Shown: piece by piece, positions 35,765 through 63,613 of the stretch
How the letters are laid out: each line of letters starts with the position of its first letter
Numbering within the stretch: position 1 is the stretch's first letter
Origin: Bacteroidota bacterium
Lineage (GTDB): Bacteria > Bacteroidota > Bacteroidia > Bacteroidales > VadinHA17
Length of the DNA stretch: 64,000 nucleotides
Assembly (NCBI GenBank): GCA_043800695.1
Contig: JAZDMU010000048.1
Coordinates: 4,003 to 68,002, forward strand
Direction of reading: 5' to 3'
The notes under the pieces: model-generated
What the model was told of the DNA's origin: nothing
Databases searched by the model: none
What the model saw: the letters and a program-made list of their open reading frames with translations, nothing else
Translations under genes and position numbers: made by a program

Positions 35765-36305
35765 GGTTTTAAGAAAGATTGCCGCGGAAATAGACAAGAA
35801 TTACCCTGATCTTCAGCAACTTATTGCCGATCTTTTCGAAACAATGTATAAATCTGAAGGAATGGGATTAGCCGCCCCGCAGATCGGGAAGTCAATAAGG
35901 ATATTTATCATTGACGGAACTCCAATAGCTGAAGACGAACCTTCGCTATCCGGTTTCAGGAAGGTATTCATCAACCCGCATATCGTTGAAAAGAGCGGCG
36001 AGATGAAACTGATGAACGAAGGGTGCCTGAGCATCCCGAACATCAGGGAAGAGGTCAACCGCGAAGGCAATATAAGGATACAGTACTATGACGAAAACTT
36101 GGAGTATCATGATGAGATTTTTGACGGCTACAAGGCAAGAATTATTCAGCATGAGTACGACCATCTCGACGGTGTCCTTTTCACCGACAAGGTAAGCCCG
36201 TTAAAAAGAAGACTGCTCAGAAGCAAGCTTCTGGCCATCACAAAGGGTAAATTCGAGGCTGATTACAGGACTATACTTCCGGGGCAGAAGATAAAGAGTG
36301 CTTAG
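35733..36305 (+). CDS. def: Peptide deformylase
   Basis: 190 aa. GMGLAAPQIG, EGCLSIP and QHEYDHLDG motifs. Confidence 0.93.
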   Translation: MTYPIVVYGHEVLRKIAAEIDKNYPDLQQLIADLFETMYKSEGMGLAAPQIGKSIRIFIIDGTPIAEDEPSLSGFRKVFINPHIVEKSGEMKLMNEGCLSIPNIREEVNREGNIRIQYYDENLEYHDEIFDGYKARIIQHEYDHLDGVLFTDKVSPLKRRLLRSKLLAITKGKFEADYRTILPGQKIKSA

Positions 36306-36435
36306 AGTGCCTAAAGTACTTAGAGTACTTAGAGTTAGAGAGTATTCTTTTAACTTTAAGTACTCCAAACTTTAGTCACTCTAAGTACTTCTCCTTAACT
36401 TTAAGTACTCCAAACTTTAGGCACTCTAAGTACTT
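36301..36435. repeat. Composite repeat: two 41-nt direct copies (36350..36390, 36395..36435; 1 mismatch) plus an inverted arm at 36301..36345
   Basis: CTTAGAGTGCCTAAAGT (36301..36317) is the exact reverse complement of 36414..36430. Internal 7-9-nt periodic words (CTTAGAGTA). Starts at the def stop codon. Confidence 0.85.
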
Positions 36436-36471
36436 TTTTGTAACTTTATCCAGTCTCAAAAGCTGCAGGCT

Positions 36472-43887: not shown

Positions 43888-43980
43888 ACTTACACAGAGT
43901 TACACGGAGAAGACACAGAGCTACACAGAGTCATAATTCTCTGTGGCACTCTGTGGATCCTCTGTGGACCTCTGTGTAAC
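43888..43980. repeat. Periodic inverted repeat: four nnnCACAGAG units facing four CTCTGTGnnn units
   Basis: CTTACACAGAG TTACACGGAG AAGACACAGAG CTACACAGAG / CTCTGTGGCA CTCTGTGGATC CTCTGTGGAC CTCTGTGTAAC, read directly. 10-11-nt period. Lies between convergent GT2 and gmhB and overlaps the last roughly 20 codons of the gmhB ORF. Confidence 0.9.
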
Positions 43981-44424: not shown

Positions 44425-45106
44425 TACATATTACTGATCGTGCCCTGTGGTAATCTTCCGGAACTCCTATATCGATGAAAGGTTCATTAAAAACTACACC
44501 TTTAAATACATCGGATCCTGCCTCCATAGCGAGGATATCATCTTCAAGAGAAAATACTTCAGGAAATTGCCGGGATTCAAAAAAATGTCTGTTAACCAGA
44601 TAAATACCTCCGTTTATCACTCCATTTTCACAATACTTCTTTTCATTAAAACCTGTTATTGTGTCTCCCGAAATTTCCACCGAGCCATATCTTGAAAACC
44701 TCTCCAGCCGTTTTAATGCAATTGTAAACAGATGGTTATTCTTAACATGATGAGAATAAAATTTATTCAGATCTATGGGGAACCAGGTATCTCCATTCAA
44801 TATCAGTATATTGCATCCTGTTGTTTCCTTAACAGCGTTAACAATTGCACCGCCGGTACCCAGAGGTTTTTCCTCTTTCGCATATTCCAGCGGAATACAG
44901 CCGAATGAATGTCCGAAATAATTTATTATGGTTTCGGACTTATATCCGACTGAGAGGATAATCTTATCAACCGGGAATTCCCTGATCCGTTGAAGAAGAT
45001 AAAACAGAAATGGTTTATCATGTATCACGGCCATGGGTTTGGGAACATCAGAGACAACTTCTTTCAGTCTGATCCCTTTTCCCCCGGCCAGAATTATTGC
45101 ATCCAT
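44417..45106 (-). CDS. hddC: Sugar-1-phosphate nucleotidyltransferase, probable D-glycero-alpha-D-manno-heptose 1-phosphate guanylyltransferase
   Basis: 229 aa. MDAIILAGGKGIRL..PKPM N-terminal nucleotidyltransferase motif. Lies between gmhA and gmhB and overlaps both neighbours. Confidence 0.7.
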   Translation of the reverse strand: MDAIILAGGKGIRLKEVVSDVPKPMAVIHDKPFLFYLLQRIREFPVDKIILSVGYKSETIINYFGHSFGCIPLEYAKEEKPLGTGGAIVNAVKETTGCNILILNGDTWFPIDLNKFYSHHVKNNHLFTIALKRLERFSRYGSVEISGDTITGFNEKKYCENGVINGGIYLVNRHFFESRQFPEVFSLEDDILAMEAGSDVFKGVVFNEPFIDIGVPEDYHRARSVICNE

Positions 45107-45699
45107 TATTTTACATCTTTAAACCTTTTAAAAAGTTCTTCCTCGACCAGGTTGCATATGATATGCCCGATGAGTATGTGCGCTTCCTGGATCCTGGGCG
45201 TTTCGCCCGATGGGATTTTAATGCAGATGCTGCACAGGTCTTTCATCTGCCCACCGTAAATACCTGTGAGTCCGATGGTTTCTATCTTCTGCTTCCGGCA
45301 TGCATTCAGCGCTTCTACCAGGTTATGAGAAGTACCTGATGTGGAGATCCCGAGAAAGATGTCTCCCGGGCTTCCTATCGCTTCGATCTGTCTTGAAAAG
45401 ACTTTATCGAAGGCTGAGTCATTGCCCACCGCGGTAAGGACAGAGGTATCGGTTGTAAGCGAAATTGCCGGCAGTCCGGGGCGGTCAAAGCCGAACCTGT
45501 TCACAAACTCGGCTGCCAGGTGCTGGGCATCTGCCGCGCTTCCTCCGTTGCCTGCAAGAAGCAACTTCCTTTTATTCCTGAAAGCATTTATTATTGCTTT
45601 GGCTGCATTCTCAACAGCCGACAAAATCTCTTCTGATTCAAGAAGCTTCTGTTTAAGTTCAAGAGAATTCTTAATCTGGGCTTTTATCCTATCCTGCAT
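45106..45699 (-). CDS. gmhA: Phosphoheptose (sedoheptulose-7-phosphate) isomerase
   Basis: 197 aa SIS domain. LLAGNGGSAADAQHLAAEF and GISTSGTSHN. Confidence 0.9.
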   Translation of the reverse strand: MQDRIKAQIKNSLELKQKLLESEEILSAVENAAKAIINAFRNKRKLLLAGNGGSAADAQHLAAEFVNRFGFDRPGLPAISLTTDTSVLTAVGNDSAFDKVFSRQIEAIGSPGDIFLGISTSGTSHNLVEALNACRKQKIETIGLTGIYGGQMKDLCSICIKIPSGETPRIQEAHILIGHIICNLVEEELFKRFKDVK

Positions 45700-45716
45700 T
45701 TGAATTTATCTAAAAT

Positions 45717-45747
45717 GTTGCTGGTTGCTTGTTACTGGTTGCTGGTT
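45717..45747. repeat. Heptamer array GTTGCTG GTTGCTT GTTACTG GTTGCTG GTT
   Basis: Read directly. On the minus (sense) strand it is CAACCAG-type, ending 17 nt upstream of the gmhA ATG. Confidence 0.9.
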
Positions 45748-45790
45748 AAAACCTTAAAATTTAATCTTTTATCTTTTTACCTTGAACACT

Positions 45791-45903
45791 GTACCCTGCA
45801 CCTCCCTGCCTGCACCCCTGAGCCCCAAGGGGGCCCACCGCGCACTCCGTACCCTGCACCTTGTACCCTGTACCTTGCGTCGTGTGTCATGAGTCGTGCG
45901 TCT
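45791..45903. repeat. C-rich low-complexity periodic spacer (GTACCCTGCACC x2, CCTGYAC words, CGTCGTG words)
   Basis: Read directly. Abuts the hddA stop codon. On the minus strand it is G-rich (GGTACAGGGTACAAGGTGCAGGGTAC), related to the CAGGG words at 60366 and 61926. Confidence 0.75.
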
Positions 45904-46932
45904 TTAATTTATTTTCCAGGCTTCGCAGCCGTTTTCGCTGAAATGGAAGCTGATCACATTACCGTTAAACCTGCTGAGAGCTTTTATCAGGCCGAGGCGT
46001 TTTACAGGATCGATTGTAAAGAACATGAATCCGCCCCCTCCTGCGCCAGATACTTTACCTCCGTAAGCGCCTGCCTTAATAGCTGCCCGGTATATCTTCT
46101 CTATAGCAGGATTGGTGATCACCGATGCCATTTTCTTCTTGTTCTCCCACTCTTTTCCCAGTTCCCTGGCAAATTTTAATATGTCGCCCTTCAGAAGATA
46201 ATCCTTCATGACATACGAATTCTTCTTGAGGCGGTGTGTGGCTTCGAGAGGAGCCTTTCTTCCGCTGCTCGTATTGTTCTGTTGTTCCTTTATTATCCGG
46301 TCCGACGACCTTGAAGCGCCGGTGTAGAACAGTACCATTGACACTTCCAGCTCATCAATAGTTTCACGCTTAATCCTGAGAGGGTTTACGATGACCCTGT
46401 CGTCCTTATAGAACTCTATGAAATTGAAGCCCCCGAATGTAGCGGCATACTGGTCCTGCTTTCCGCCGCGGAATCCCAGGTCGTTCCTCTCAATGCGGCA
46501 TGCAAGATGGGCCATGTCATAGTCGCCAAGCGGGAGGTTCAGCCATTCGGTGAATGCCCTGAGAATTGCCACTACCATTGTGGACGAGGAACCTAGACCA
46601 CTTCCCGGAAGCGCATCACACCAGGTTGTTACCATGAACGAGAGCGGTCTTGTGATCTTAAAATCCTTTATTATCCTGTTATACACACCTTTGTGAAGAT
46701 CAAGCATGCCGTCAATAGGCAGCTCTCTCAGAGACGGGTATCTCTTCTTCAGGTTCAGATCAGCAGCATTGATGATAATTGATCCCGTAGCTGTCTCCTC
46801 AATGGTGCAGTATGCATACTGGTCGATGGTGGCATTAAGAACTGCACCGCCATAAATGTCGGAGTACGGCGAAACATCGGTTCCGCCGCCGGCAAGGCCA
46901 AGACGCAGGGGGGCTTTGCTTCTATAGATCAT
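45904..46932 (-). CDS. hddA: GHMP-family kinase, probable D-glycero-alpha-D-manno-heptose 7-phosphate kinase
   Basis: 342 aa. GHMP motif [10 protein letters not shown]-terminal [14 protein letters not shown]-terminal [18 protein letters not shown]. In context with gmhA, gmhB and the nucleotidyltransferase. Confidence 0.75.
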
Positions 46933-46992
46933 GTTGCTGGTTACTGGTTGCTGGTTGCTGGTTGCTGGTTACTGGTTGCTGGTTACTGGTTG
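46933..46992. repeat. Heptamer array, 8.6 units of GTTGCTG/GTTACTG
   Basis: Read directly. Begins at the base immediately adjacent to the hddA start codon, so on the sense strand (CAACCAG/TAACCAG)n runs straight into the ATG. Confidence 0.95.
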
Positions 46993-47002
46993 TTTGTCAG
47001 TC

Positions 47003-47036
47003 ATTGCGAGTCCCGCCTCAGGCGGGACGAAGCAAT
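47003..47036. repeat. Hairpin ATTGC-GA-GTCCCGCC-TCA-GGCGGGAC-GAA-GCAAT just after the GT4 stop
   Basis: 8-bp inner stem and 5-bp outer stem read directly. The CATTGCGAG...CGAAGCAATC frame is a word pair I recall as recurrent in Bacteroidota intergenic DNA. Confidence 0.7.
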
Positions 47037-47038
47037 CC

Positions 47039-48166
47039 TTATCTTTCATTAGATATTTTCATTATAGACTCCGTTAGTTTATTCCAGGTAAATTTAGCTT
47101 TTTCTTCCTTAACACCTGTTGTGAACAACTCCTTACGGTTGTTGGTGAAATAATCATCAATGGAATCTGCCACAGCCTTTGCATCGGGTTCCACAACATA
47201 ACCGCATTTTCCATGGGGTACGATCTCACTCAATCCTCCGACATCGGTCACCAGCATCGGCTTTTCGAAATGGAAAGCTATCTGTGTCACGCCGCTCTGG
47301 GTAGCACTTCTGTAAGGCTGTACAATCAGGTCAGCAGCACTGAAGAACAGTGCAACCTCATCTTCATCGATAAAGCGGTCGTACAGGATCACATCATCAG
47401 CAAGACCATGTTTCTCAATAATCGCCTTGTAGGGCTTGTCACTCTCATAGAACTCGCCGGCGATAATCAGTTTCAGTTTCTTGCTCCTCAGCGTTCTGTC
47501 TGCAAATGCTTCCAGAAGAAGATCAAGTCCCTTGTATGCCCTTATGAATCCAAAAAAGAGCAGGTATGAATTCCCTTTATCAAGGTTAAGACTCTTCAGA
47601 GCCTCATCCCTCCCAACCTTTTCACCATAATTGTCGTATAAAGGATGAGGGTTGAAGGCAACCGGAATATCTACATTGAATGTTCTGAGGTCATCGCCAA
47701 CGCTTTTCGACATGACAACTGCCCCGTGAATAGCTCTCACAAAATAGCGGGTAAGGAGCCTATCGATGAAGCTTTCTTCGTGCGGTATAACATTATCGAA
47801 TATGCAAATTACCCTGGTACTTTTCTTACCTGCAATCCGGGCAACAGTACCGAAACAGGGCGACATGAAAGGATGCCAGTACTTTATCACAAGAAGATCA
47901 GGCTGCTTCCTTTTTATGCTCCGTCCGGTTTTTATCCAGTTGAAAGGATTAACTGAACTCAGCACCCTGCTGATCTTTAATCCCTGAGGTGCAGGAGTTT
48001 CAGTATATTGTGTTTTGCCGGGGAAAAGAAATCCGGGATACTGAAGTGTAAATGTAAGTATCTCAACATCATGACCTTCGTCAATGAACTGCCGGGCCAG
48101 GCGCTCATTGTATGAAGCCAGTCCGCCGCGGTAAGGGTGTGCAGTTCCCAGTATTACAATCCTCAT
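47039..48166 (-). CDS. GT4-family (GT-B fold) glycosyltransferase
   Basis: 375 aa. MRIVILGTAHPYRGG N-terminus and a C-terminal EX7E-like region (..QPYRSATQSGVTQIAFHFEKPMLVTDVGGLSEIV..). Confidence 0.8.
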   Translation of the reverse strand: MRIVILGTAHPYRGGLASYNERLARQFIDEGHDVEILTFTLQYPGFLFPGKTQYTETPAPQGLKISRVLSSVNPFNWIKTGRSIKRKQPDLLVIKYWHPFMSPCFGTVARIAGKKSTRVICIFDNVIPHEESFIDRLLTRYFVRAIHGAVVMSKSVGDDLRTFNVDIPVAFNPHPLYDNYGEKVGRDEALKSLNLDKGNSYLLFFGFIRAYKGLDLLLEAFADRTLRSKKLKLIIAGEFYESDKPYKAIIEKHGLADDVILYDRFIDEDEVALFFSAADLIVQPYRSATQSGVTQIAFHFEKPMLVTDVGGLSEIVPHGKCGYVVEPDAKAVADSIDDYFTNNRKELFTTGVKEEKAKFTWNKLTESIMKISNER

Positions 48167-48205
48167 AATCCCTTAAAAGTCCAAATTTAATGAAAATGAG
48201 GGATT

Positions 48206-48247
48206 GTTACTAGTTACTGGTTACAGGTTGCTGGTTGCTGGTTTACT
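48206..48247. repeat. Heptamer array GTTACTA GTTACTG GTTACAG GTTGCTG GTTGCTG GTTTACT
   Basis: Read directly. 39 nt upstream of the GT4 ATG in CAACCAG sense orientation. Overlaps the stop codon of the upstream DUF5362-like gene. Confidence 0.9.
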
Positions 48248-48617
48248 AAAACAGGGAACCTGAGGCAAGCAGTCCGATAATAACTATCAGGTAGATGCCA
48301 AAGAAAGCAAGTCCTATTATCGTTAGTACAAACTGGATGAAGAAGGCTCTGGTCTGTTTGTCAATCGTATAGATGAGATCATCTTTGGAACCGGATGCAA
48401 GGTATTTTTTAAACCCATCTGCGGCTTCCCTGAGCCTGATGCCCATGTAAATTACCGGCACTCCGATGAGGGCTCCGATGATCGTGAGGCAATACAGGGC
48501 CCCCCCTATTATCTGAAGCAGCCCGATGAAATTCATATACTTTGCCAGGTTTGGTATATTCGATGATAATAAATTATCGGTCTGGCCGCCGGTTGTAACT
48601 GATTCCTGTTCTGACAT
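48246..48617 (-). CDS. Small membrane protein (DUF5362-like)
   Basis: The ATG at 48617 (MSEQESVTTGG..) is preceded by AGGAGG. Two long hydrophobic helices flank ..GIRLREAADGFKKYL.. Confidence 0.5.
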   Translation of the reverse strand: MSEQESVTTGGQTDNLLSSNIPNLAKYMNFIGLLQIIGGALYCLTIIGALIGVPVIYMGIRLREAADGFKKYLASGSKDDLIYTIDKQTRAFFIQFVLTIIGLAFFGIYLIVIIGLLASGSLF

Positions 48618-48757
48618 GTTTGATCCTCCTTTGGTTAAGTGAATAATATAAAGTACTATTTTACTCCAGTGAAAAACTAATATAGATATAATTCCTGACA
48701 AAAAAGGACAGGCGTGAGGAATTATGTTGTTTTTAATTGCACGTACTCACCCCCCAG

Positions 48758-60365: not shown

Positions 60366-60436
60366 CACAGGGTTCAGGGCGCAGGGCAAGAAAAAAATAA
60401 CTTTTGCTCTGTGCTCTGAGCACTGAGCTCTGAGCT
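60366..60436 (+). repeat. Heptamer inverted repeat (CAGGGnn x3 facing GCTCTGn x4) forming a roughly 22-bp stem directly upstream of tmRNA
   Basis: Pairing checked base by base: 16 Watson-Crick pairs, 4 G.U pairs and 2 mismatches between 60366..60387 and 60406..60427. The G.U pairs exist only in the plus-strand RNA. Confidence 0.8.
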
Positions 60437-60442
60437 ATCCCC

Positions 60443-60835
60443 GGGGCTGACATGGTTTTGACAGCACGAGGGGTGTTATGTAAGCATGCAGGATGTGGTG
60501 ACGCGTTCCTTGAACAGTGTTACAAAACAATAACTGGCGAATCTAATTACGCTCTCGCTGCTTAAGTGAATAAAGTAACTTAAGCTTCATCCCGGCACAT
60601 GTGCCGGGACGAGACGTCTCCCGGGCGGTCATGCCCTGATCCAACCCGATACGGAGGCGCACGCAATCCGGGGTTAGCCGGAGGGGCTCTCTTCCCTGAA
60701 GGCGAAGCAAGCAATGAGATAAGGAGATGTCTGGTCGTTCTGCACCTTACCTTTCCCGACAATCAAGCAGGACTAAGCATGTAGAAAGCATATGGCTTCC
60801 GTGACTGGACCGGGGTTCGACTCCCCGCAGCTCCA
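60443..60835 (+). ncRNA. ssrA: Transfer-messenger RNA
   Basis: 5' GGGGCTGA pairs with 3' CAGCTCCA, including the G.U alanine identity pair. T-arm GGGGTTCGACTCCCC. Tag reading frame GGC GAA TCT AAT TAC GCT CTC GCT GCT TAA encodes GESNYALAA (60536..60565). Confidence 0.93.
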
Positions 60836-60855
60836 CATAAAAAAGAGCGAGAGTG

Positions 60856-63522: not shown

Positions 63523-63613
63523 GTCTTGGGTCTTGAGTCTTGGGTCTTGGGTCTTGAGTCTTGGGTCCTGGGTCTTGGGTCTTGGGTCTTGAATCTTGGG
63601 TCTTGGGTCTTGG
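63523..63613. repeat. 13-unit heptamer tandem array (GTCTTGG, with variants GTCTTGA, GTCCTGG, ATCTTGG)
   Basis: 13 x 7 = 91 nt read directly. On the minus strand it reads (CCAAGAC)n, ending 33 nt upstream of the tannase-family ATG and 6 nt after the upstream hydrolase stop. Confidence 0.95.

Follow-up and report, generated by a model that had tools for sequence, protein, structure and literature searches.

Heptamer repeat arrays before start codons of a heptose/glycosyltransferase operon in an uncultured Bacteroidales genome: strand orientation at gene boundaries and a possible role as intercistronic leaders

Three consecutive genes of a heptose/glycosyltransferase operon in an uncultured Bacteroidales bacterium, encoding a glycosyltransferase of family GT4, a heptose 7-phosphate kinase (hddA) and a sedoheptulose-7-phosphate isomerase (gmhA), are each preceded by a tandem array of seven-nucleotide units. 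What such arrays are, and whether they serve the genes that follow them, is the question raised by this locus. It lies in a window of 64,000 nt (positions 4003-68002 of contig C23) in genome G000 (3.53 Mb, 58 contigs, 44% G+C). Analysis of the whole genome with Tandem Repeats Finder (TRF) placed the arrays at 45717..45747 (AACCAGC/AACAAGC, 4.4 units), 46933..46992 (CAACCAG/TAACCAG, 8.6 units) and 48206..48243 (AACCAGC/AACCAGT, 5.4 units). The first two were thereby found exactly as in the original prediction, made from the window sequence; the third is indeed present at 48206, but the end at 48247 and the 6 units previously assigned to it include a degenerate edge. All three lie on the minus strand, which reads (C/T)AACCAG or CAACAAG, in agreement with the CAACCAG/TAACCAG reading given before, and none overlaps an open reading frame (ORF). 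The distances of 17, 0 and 39 nt to the ATG codons of gmhA, hddA and the GT4 gene were likewise correct, the hddA array touching the ATG. Here and below, promoters are inferred from motif and every statement on structure is a prediction.

Arrays of this sort are not confined to the operon. TRF returned 361 period-7 rows from the genome, 213 of them with a score of at least 40; at the same score, period 6 gave 10 rows and period 8 gave 90, and periods 14 and 21 were also enriched. After merging, 204 clean period-7 arrays (about 9 kb) were counted, only 7 of which lie deep inside ORFs, along with 74 period-8 arrays. A third-order Markov genome of equal size yielded no period-7 row at that score, which rules out a chance origin. 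The commonest units are AACCAGC (49 rows) and AACAAGC (21 rows), followed by AAAAGAT, AGCCCTG, AACCAAT, AACCAGT and AATCCGC, with dozens of rarer ones. Arrays occupy about 5% of co-directional and divergent spacers and 7.8% of convergent spacers. Array-bearing spacers are clustered (17 adjacent pairs versus 7.6 expected, P=0.002); three successive junctions with arrays in one operon are thus nothing out of the ordinary. Among 48 start-proximal arrays, 39 are in co-directional, operon-like junctions and 44 have no TAnnTTTG box within 100 nt upstream, so that most look intercistronic. TAnnTTTG is the Bacteroidetes -7 consensus (PMC7366714); in this genome its strong enrichment at -21 to -40 from starts is confined to the sense strand, so that it can be used here as a promoter marker. 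At the level of the phylum, (AACCAGC)3 is sporadic (14 of 401 genomes scanned), a count that says little on heptamer arrays generally.

For each array adjoining the 5′ end of a gene, the first start codon after the array was taken as its start. In the window, the six arrays lying just upstream of a start (at 1565, 1611, 45717, 46933, 48206 and 63523) all have their C/A-rich strand as the sense strand, as had been noted. This orientation proved non-random in the genome at large: counting arrays whose sense strand is C/A-rich against those of the opposite orientation gave 38:7 within 20 nt of a start (p=3e-6) and 63:22 within 50 nt. Broken down by distance, the C/A-rich to G/T-rich ratio is 28:5 at 0-10 nt, 10:2 at 11-20 nt, 13:6 at 21-35 nt, 12:9 at 36-50 nt, 11:14 at 51-80 nt and 13:12 at 81-150 nt. 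Over the same 0-150 nt, the mean G content of the sense strand climbs from 0.12 to 0.27. When a -7 box separates the array from the ATG, the two orientations are equally frequent (7:7). At least 10 unit families follow the start-side rule in this genome, and the rule is a strong tendency near the start, no law. The array at 63523-63613 is the longest of the window, with 13 units of GTCTTGG; its sense strand reads CCAAGAC, and it lies 33 nt before a start codon.

In composition, start-side arrays (A 0.40, G 0.12-0.13) match the ordinary array-free leaders of this genome (A 0.38-0.41, G 0.12-0.14), the difference being that C replaces T. They are not simply the mirror image of arrays found next to stop codons, from which they depart in A (0.40 vs 0.28, p=0.006) and in G (0.12 vs 0.20, p=1.5e-4); to a degree, the start side is special relative to the stop side. 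Predicted accessibility of the -20 to +10 region is 0.64 behind C/A-rich arrays, 0.55 in intercistronic controls and 0.47 at promoter-validated starts. The arrays of all three spacers of the operon are unpaired in the folds. C/A-rich units are free of ATG, GTG and TTG; A occurs at -3 in 21 of 38 start-side arrays and at -6 in 21 of 38; and flush CAACCAG arrays share one phase, CCAG(C/T)AAC directly followed by ATG, in 4 of 4 independent cases in the genome. Work on Flavobacterium johnsoniae has shown that Bacteroidetes do without Shine-Dalgarno (SD) sequences, that mRNA structure and A residues at -3 and -6 modulate initiation, and that AUG is avoided in the vicinity of starts (PMC6847099). 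The suggestion that the arrays are unstructured leaders thus gains support from the models, which predict them to be unstructured, and from an A and G content equal to that of ordinary leaders.

We favor, with a probability of about 0.5, the interpretation that C/A-rich start-side arrays are unstructured, G-poor, AUG-free leaders for internal cistrons. The three arrays would locally represent a population, common to the clade, of 7-nt (and 8-nt) arrays that are born and turn over quickly in spacers, slipped-strand expansion and contraction being the simplest origin, and the neighboring feature would decide which array orientation persists. Within some 20 nt of a start, the strand that survives would be G-poor, A/C-rich, non-self-pairing, devoid of AUG, GUG and UUG and often endowed with A at -3 or -6, that is, the type of initiation region used by SD-less Bacteroidota. 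Most likely, the hddA array, flush with the ATG and placed behind a hairpin, and the gmhA array, 17 nt from its ATG, both serve as unstructured leaders between cistrons, or are at least tolerated in that role, so that an internal start codon stays accessible within the polycistronic mRNA. The effect would depend on composition and structure and not on unit sequence, leaving array length to drift between lineages. In their mode of action, start-side arrays most probably resemble leaders that act as unstructured ribosome-standby or enhancer sites (PMC5934652) and A-rich Kozak-like regions (PMC6847099), with which they share a single-stranded, G-poor character, A at -3 and -6 and the lack of a nearby AUG; those are unique sequences, whereas here the leader is a tandem repeat.

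The hddA array runs into the ATG (46930-46932) in the phase CCAGCAAC directly followed by ATG, is also scored by TRF as a 14-nt super-unit (GTTGCTGGTTACTG) and takes part in no pairing in the fold; the junction contains no promoter box. Between the GT4 stop codon and the array, at 47000..47038 on the minus strand, lies a stem-loop resembling repetitive extragenic palindromic (REP) elements (GGATTGCTTCGTCCCGCCTGAGGCGGGACTCGCAATGAC), with an 8-bp GC stem in the fold. Seven copies are found in the genome (e.g., C49:97107-97144 and C47:21827-21868), sharing the outer stem and differing in the inner stems; the family has constant outer arms, GGATTGCTTCG and CTCGCAATGAC, around a variable GC-rich inner stem. 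The hairpin recurs with compensatory changes at the GT4-hddA junction of loci L001, L072, L023, L026, L079 and L112, and may act as a 3′-end stabilizer or partial terminator.

The gmhA-side array is the last module of a 204-nt hddA-gmhA spacer built of four to five different heptamer families. Past the hddA stop codon, the sense strand passes through a mosaic (45764..45902, minus strand, from sequence and TRF) of GACGCAC-type units (45877-45902), AGGGTAC/AAGGTGC-type units (45849-45877, continuing to about 45790) and AAAAGAT-type units (45764-45779), families that are found again elsewhere in the genome. The RNA fold leaves the terminal array single-stranded, and the last 146 nt of the spacer fold worse than 197 of 200 shuffled sequences. 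On these models, the hddA and gmhA arrays are probably intercistronic leaders, which preserves for these two the earlier proposal that the arrays belong to 5′ leaders.

The proposal fails for the GT4 gene. There, a Bacteroidetes-type -7 box (TAAATTTG, 48182..48189, minus strand) lies between the array and the ATG, 23 nt before the latter. The array starts 2 nt past the stop codon of the upstream DUF5362 gene, ends 16 nt upstream of the box and covers the -33 region. The box is kept at -22 to -28 in loci L001, L008, L012, L013, L016, L028, L005 and L009, and the arrays that relatives carry at the GT4 gene, of various unit types, are all upstream of it. Because it falls between the DUF5362 stop and a conserved -7 box, the GT4-side array is, as far as the sequence can tell, upstream of the probable transcription start: it is spacer, 3′ untranslated region or promoter-upstream DNA, not a leader. 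A search of the sequences and folds of the three spacers found neither a complementary partner arm nor an enclosed ORF for any of the three arrays.

To follow one junction through evolution, 112 loci from related genomes and metagenome contigs were reduced to 87 distinct GT4-hddA junction sequences; more than 100 homologous loci keep the hddA start. In 42 of the 87, an array lies no more than 30 nt from the hddA ATG; at least 13 unit families are represented, among them CAACCAG, AATCCGC, ACCCAGA, ACCTTGA, AAACTCC, CCGCAAG, TTTTATC, AAACCCG, ACTCACT and AACCCTG. Forty of these 42 arrays are C/A-rich and two are T-rich yet G-poor (G 0-0.06); the mean G content is 0.12. An array and a -7 box belonging to hddA itself are nearly mutually exclusive, the box occurring in 1 of 42 array junctions versus 8 of 45 array-free ones. 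In some relatives, such a promoter box (TAAATTTGCATCAAAAC ahead of the ATG) replaces the array, and in others the GT4-hddA spacer is just 1-23 nt long (L014, L015, L091, L092, L096 and L099 exemplify these two arrangements). Judging from these sequences, array, own promoter box and very short spacer are three alternative solutions at this junction. Many relatives have an upstream complementary arm (ATTGCGG...AATCCGC) or a REP-like hairpin at the same place.

The number of CAACCAG units at this junction ranges from 2.5 to 8.6 across related lineages, in the same phase at the ATG, so the copy-number variability anticipated for these arrays is borne out between lineages. The flush phase is common to L001, L023, L026, L072, L079 and L121, and when closely related contigs are compared, the array is longer by one unit in one of them or another unit variant has spread (L076 vs L078, L077 vs L084, L127 vs L030). 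From such unit-number differences and from the homogenization of variants, we infer that the arrays are satellite-like DNA produced by slippage. In genome and metagenome scans, the best HddA match reached 92% identity and the nearest genome about 70% at the DNA level; a look-up of the exact HddA protein had no match. Of 76 distinct junctions on the far side of hddA, 19 have an array after the stop codon; purines predominate in these arrays, 14 of which show G>C and 4 C>G. To judge by the orthologous sequences, arrays persist at a site, change fast in sequence and length and, since 45 of 87 orthologous GT4-hddA junctions do without one, are dispensable.

Several observations weigh against a leader function, beginning with that last figure. 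An orientation rule also holds where no gene begins. Arrays abutting a stop codon (-15 to +5 nt) have G>C on the sense strand in a ratio of 56:13, with 27:1 in convergent and 24:6 in co-directional spacers; the GT4-side array is one of the 6 exceptions among these 30 co-directional spacers. Arrays at tRNA ends probably conform, with the G-rich strand pointing into the spacer in a ratio of 5:1 (n=6). In spacers devoid of arrays, G does not exceed C after stops (C 0.21, G 0.18). The stop-side rule thus belongs to arrays as such, and its derivation from amplified local composition is ruled out. Being mirrored after stops and at tRNA ends, orientation alone is no proof of leader function, nor is the rule peculiar to leaders. 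A single geometric rule, by which the G-rich strand runs 5′ to 3′ from any gene boundary into the spacer, describes the data no worse than two functional ones do. No orientation preference is seen (4:6) among single arrays that take up the whole of a short co-directional spacer. In several relatives, C exceeds G on the sense strand of arrays that precede the GT4 promoter, even though these lie outside the leader. The cross-species counts are phylogenetically non-independent, orientation being heritable while units turn over, and genes and start codons were called with a simple in-house ORF/codon-usage script, a crude caller. A GCTCTGA-type heptamer array is also found at 60366-60436 of the window, ending 7 nt before the transfer-messenger RNA (tmRNA) gene (60443-60838).

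These observations could be accounted for if the arrays were intrinsic palindromic modules, born as inverted pairs or as arms of hairpins or of cassettes resembling intervening sequences (IVS), with the G/T-rich arm always on the 5′ side. Fold-back self-priming of G/T-rich 3′ ends offers a possible route; our three single arrays would be surviving halves, and the C/A-rich strand before a start a geometric by-product without leader function. Indeed, wherever two arrays of opposite skew stand side by side, the G/T-arm precedes the C/A-arm without exception (19:0 for period 7, 5:0 for period 8, 24:0 together), in every spacer type including convergent ones, and the pairs fold as hairpins, mostly of -20 to -52 kcal/mol (one only -0.5), with 6 bp and one mismatch per unit in 8 of 19. 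Examples of stop-abutting arrays and inverted pairs are C2:76862-76949, C9:45207-45323, C25:167883-167985 and 1565-1649 of the window. The inward-G rule at stops and tRNA ends, where initiation is irrelevant, its specificity for arrays and the ATTGCGG...AATCCGC pairs at the hddA junction of many relatives all speak for such modules, as does a PF05635 (23S-IVS-protein-like) ORF (C33:45420-45773) placed between complementary 8-nt arrays. Its surroundings (C33:45288-45925) look like an IVS-like cassette, with GGCNNTAA-type arrays to the left and GCCNTAAC-type arrays to the right of the ORF; a second PF05635 ORF (C26:194990-195304) follows a 16-unit TGGATAA array. However, start-side arms are no mirror of stop-side arms, being A-richer and G-poorer like ordinary leaders, and our three arrays have no complementary partner in their spacers and do not flank a PF05635 ORF. 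With two such ORFs and few long-range complementary pairs in a genome of some 280 arrays, cassette arms are ruled out as a general explanation. Loops and flanks of the inverted pairs are unrelated, which argues against copies of one element and eliminates miniature inverted-repeat transposable elements or other mobile elements. On balance, intrinsic modules are the strongest rival of the leader interpretation, but we consider it unlikely that they are all there is to the arrays. The narrower proposition that the geometric rule reflects array birth rather than filtering, for instance because G/T-rich 3′ ends fold back and prime themselves or because hairpin modules are obligatory, seems to us doubtful; if true, it would provide a mechanistic handle on the long-unexplained excess of heptamers, the C/A-rich arm being secondarily co-opted as an SD-less leader.

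Other explanations would assign the arrays a regulatory role. A protein or small RNA might recognize CAACCAG and co-regulate the genes behind it, as was hypothesized for the TAACTGA repeats of Beggiatoaceae (PMC4679880). With 70 of 361 TRF rows, CAACCAG/CAACAAG far outnumbers every other family, its phase at the ATG is fixed and array-bearing spacers cluster, all of which would suit a binding platform; the same orthologous junction, however, carries at least 13 unrelated units in relatives, and the families obeying the start-side rule here have composition alone in common. Shared composition in place of shared sequence argues against one sequence-specific binder, and we hold this explanation to be improbable. 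Hardly better are the prospects of a contingency locus, the length-variable switch of the original prediction, in which slippage within a population would alter expression of the heptose and glycosyltransferase genes. Unit number does differ between related lineages at a site whose flanks and phase are conserved, and the gene products furnish a surface-sugar precursor, the sort of function on which phase variation typically acts. But all three arrays lie outside ORFs and not between -33 and -7 elements; a 7-nt step can therefore switch neither reading frame nor promoter spacing, and arrays are found in about 5% of all spacers, beside genes of all kinds. The least probable of these roles, in our opinion a long shot, is that the arrays are Rho-loading tracts which, as C-rich, G-poor intercistronic RNA, would recruit Rho and set polarity or attenuation in the operon. 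In sense-strand content (C 0.28-0.31, G 0.12-0.13) and in their lengths of 30-90 nt, the arrays resemble Rho utilization (rut) sites; one array, moreover, follows the DUF5362 stop just before a new promoter. Yet the polarity is limited to the last 20 nt or so before starts and is absent or reversed farther off, and arrays right after stops, where Rho would be expected to load, are G>C rather than C>G.

Two further data sets bear on the generality of the strand pattern. Period-8 arrays obey both rules, with ratios of 10:2 at starts and 27:11 at stops, and in a 400-kb sample from a congener (G018), arrays of periods 7 and 8 are again in excess and the stop rule holds (6:0), the start rule standing at 3:2 with five cases only. 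A pure transcription-strand mutational bias is ruled out, as both polarities occur within one transcription unit according to position. Neither the two-sided strand pattern nor the fixed arm order was found in the literature searched.

The gene names of the original prediction are supported by the best hits in NCBIfam, all below the curated equivalog cut-offs, and by Pfam. All genes are on the minus strand. The DUF5362 gene (48246..48701; PF17319), whose stop codon adjoins the third array, is followed by the GT4-family glycosyltransferase gene (47039..48166; Glycos_transf_1 and Glyco_transf_4), which has its own promoter according to the conserved -7 box. hddA (45904..46932) specifies a GHMP kinase, recognized by Pfam and in NCBIfam as D-glycero-D-manno-heptose 7-phosphate kinase (NF049969, E=2e-133, below the curated cut-off), and gmhA (45106..45699) a SIS-domain protein (SIS_2; NCBIfam best hits phosphoheptose isomerase and gmhA, also below cut-off). 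hddC and gmhB lie downstream from gmhA, with best hits HddC and GmhB, again under the cut-offs. The convergent junction at the 3′ end of gmhB (43890-43976) contains two facing arrays of 10-nt period, TTACACAGAG in 4 copies and CTCTGTGGAC in 3.7. Farther away, at 36295-36448, is a complex repeat with periodicities of 9, 16, 25 and 45 nt (AGAGTACTT), the 45-nt unit being repeated 2.2 times with 90-97% identity. An Rfam search of the spacers matched no known RNA family, the sole matches being tmRNA and the Bacteroidales small signal recognition particle RNA. The latter, together with relatives among Bacteroidales metagenome-assembled genomes (MAGs) from fen, lake sediment and wetland, identifies the host as an uncultured member of this order.

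Contrary to the original prediction, which knew of no formal description in Bacteroidota, related elements have been reported in this phylum. MacGregor (2015) described TAACTGA heptamers in "forward" orientation a few nucleotides from starts in Beggiatoaceae, 15 cyanobacteria and five Bacteroidetes; in Flexibacter litoralis and the four others, TAACTGA and other heptamers lie forward 1-43 nt before starts (PMC4679880). A role in translation initiation was proposed for them, and close relatives lack the repeats at the same junction (PMC4679880). The present arrays are alike in being intergenic tandem 7-nt units (4.4, 8.6 and 5.4 copies, where two suffice) lying mostly forward within a few to 43 nt of SD-less starts (17, 0 and 39 nt), and in Gramella, Aequorivita and Elizabethkingia the TAACTGA type is mixed with other heptamer repeats, as here (PMC4679880). 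The units, however, are CAACCAG, TAACCAG and CAACAAG, besides at least 20 other families in the genome, making ours the same kind of element but a different family, and the stop-side mirror rule and fixed order of inverted pairs are unreported there (PMC4679880).

Short tandemly repeated repetitive (STRR) sequences of cyanobacteria form hairpins between co-transcribed genes such as hupS and hupL, for which effects on transcript stability, translational coupling or termination have been suggested (PMC2670836). Our genome resembles this system in having several heptamer families that are intergenic and able to form hairpins between genes, but phylum and units are different, placing the arrays outside the STRR1-3 of heterocystous cyanobacteria. 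No boundary-proximal orientation pattern was found described for STRR in the literature searched. The STRR1-3 consensus units are CCCCAGT, TTGGTCA and CAACAGT. Among long simple sequence repeats (LSSR), heptanucleotide units are the most abundant class in prokaryotes (Mrazek et al. 2007, as summarized in PMC4679880); according to the same summary, LSSR are sporadic across phyla and attributed to polymerase slippage, and the excess seen here of mostly non-coding tandem repeats of 5-11 nt, peaking at 7 nt and going beyond compositional expectation (213 rows versus 0 in the Markov genome), is of this kind. Xanthomonas and Nostoc possess G-rich heptamers of the GGGNATC type (Rehm 2015, PMC4692102), which have counterparts here in the GGGCTCA, GGGTACA and GGGCGCA families with their GGG every 7 nt (e.g., C21:35480-35586, C58:52915-53007 and C21:60849-60925); on paper, such families could form G-quadruplexes, as described for the Xanthomonas and Nostoc heptamers. 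In the accessible portions of the LSSR and GGGNATC surveys, strand orientation is not related to starts or stops, and Bacteroidales are not among the highlighted taxa. The arrays are, in sum, a further case of a known bacterial heptamer class, here in an uncultured Bacteroidales genus.

Why bacteria have intergenic 7-nt repeats, and whether these have any function, has been a long-standing question since STRR and LSSR were described. This genome provides unusually clean statistics on the matter, with about 280 arrays and a position-dependent strand rule at both gene ends. In practice, Bacteroidales MAGs are affected by such arrays in two ways: the calling of ORFs and start codons is distorted, and assemblies are broken. 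If the arrays are intrinsic modules, the fixed arm order limits the ways in which the repeats can be made. In composition, the start-side arrays approach what Bacteroidota use for SD-less initiation, and if they do act as leaders, slippage-prone repeats would provide a cheap and evolvable insulation of internal start codons in operons.

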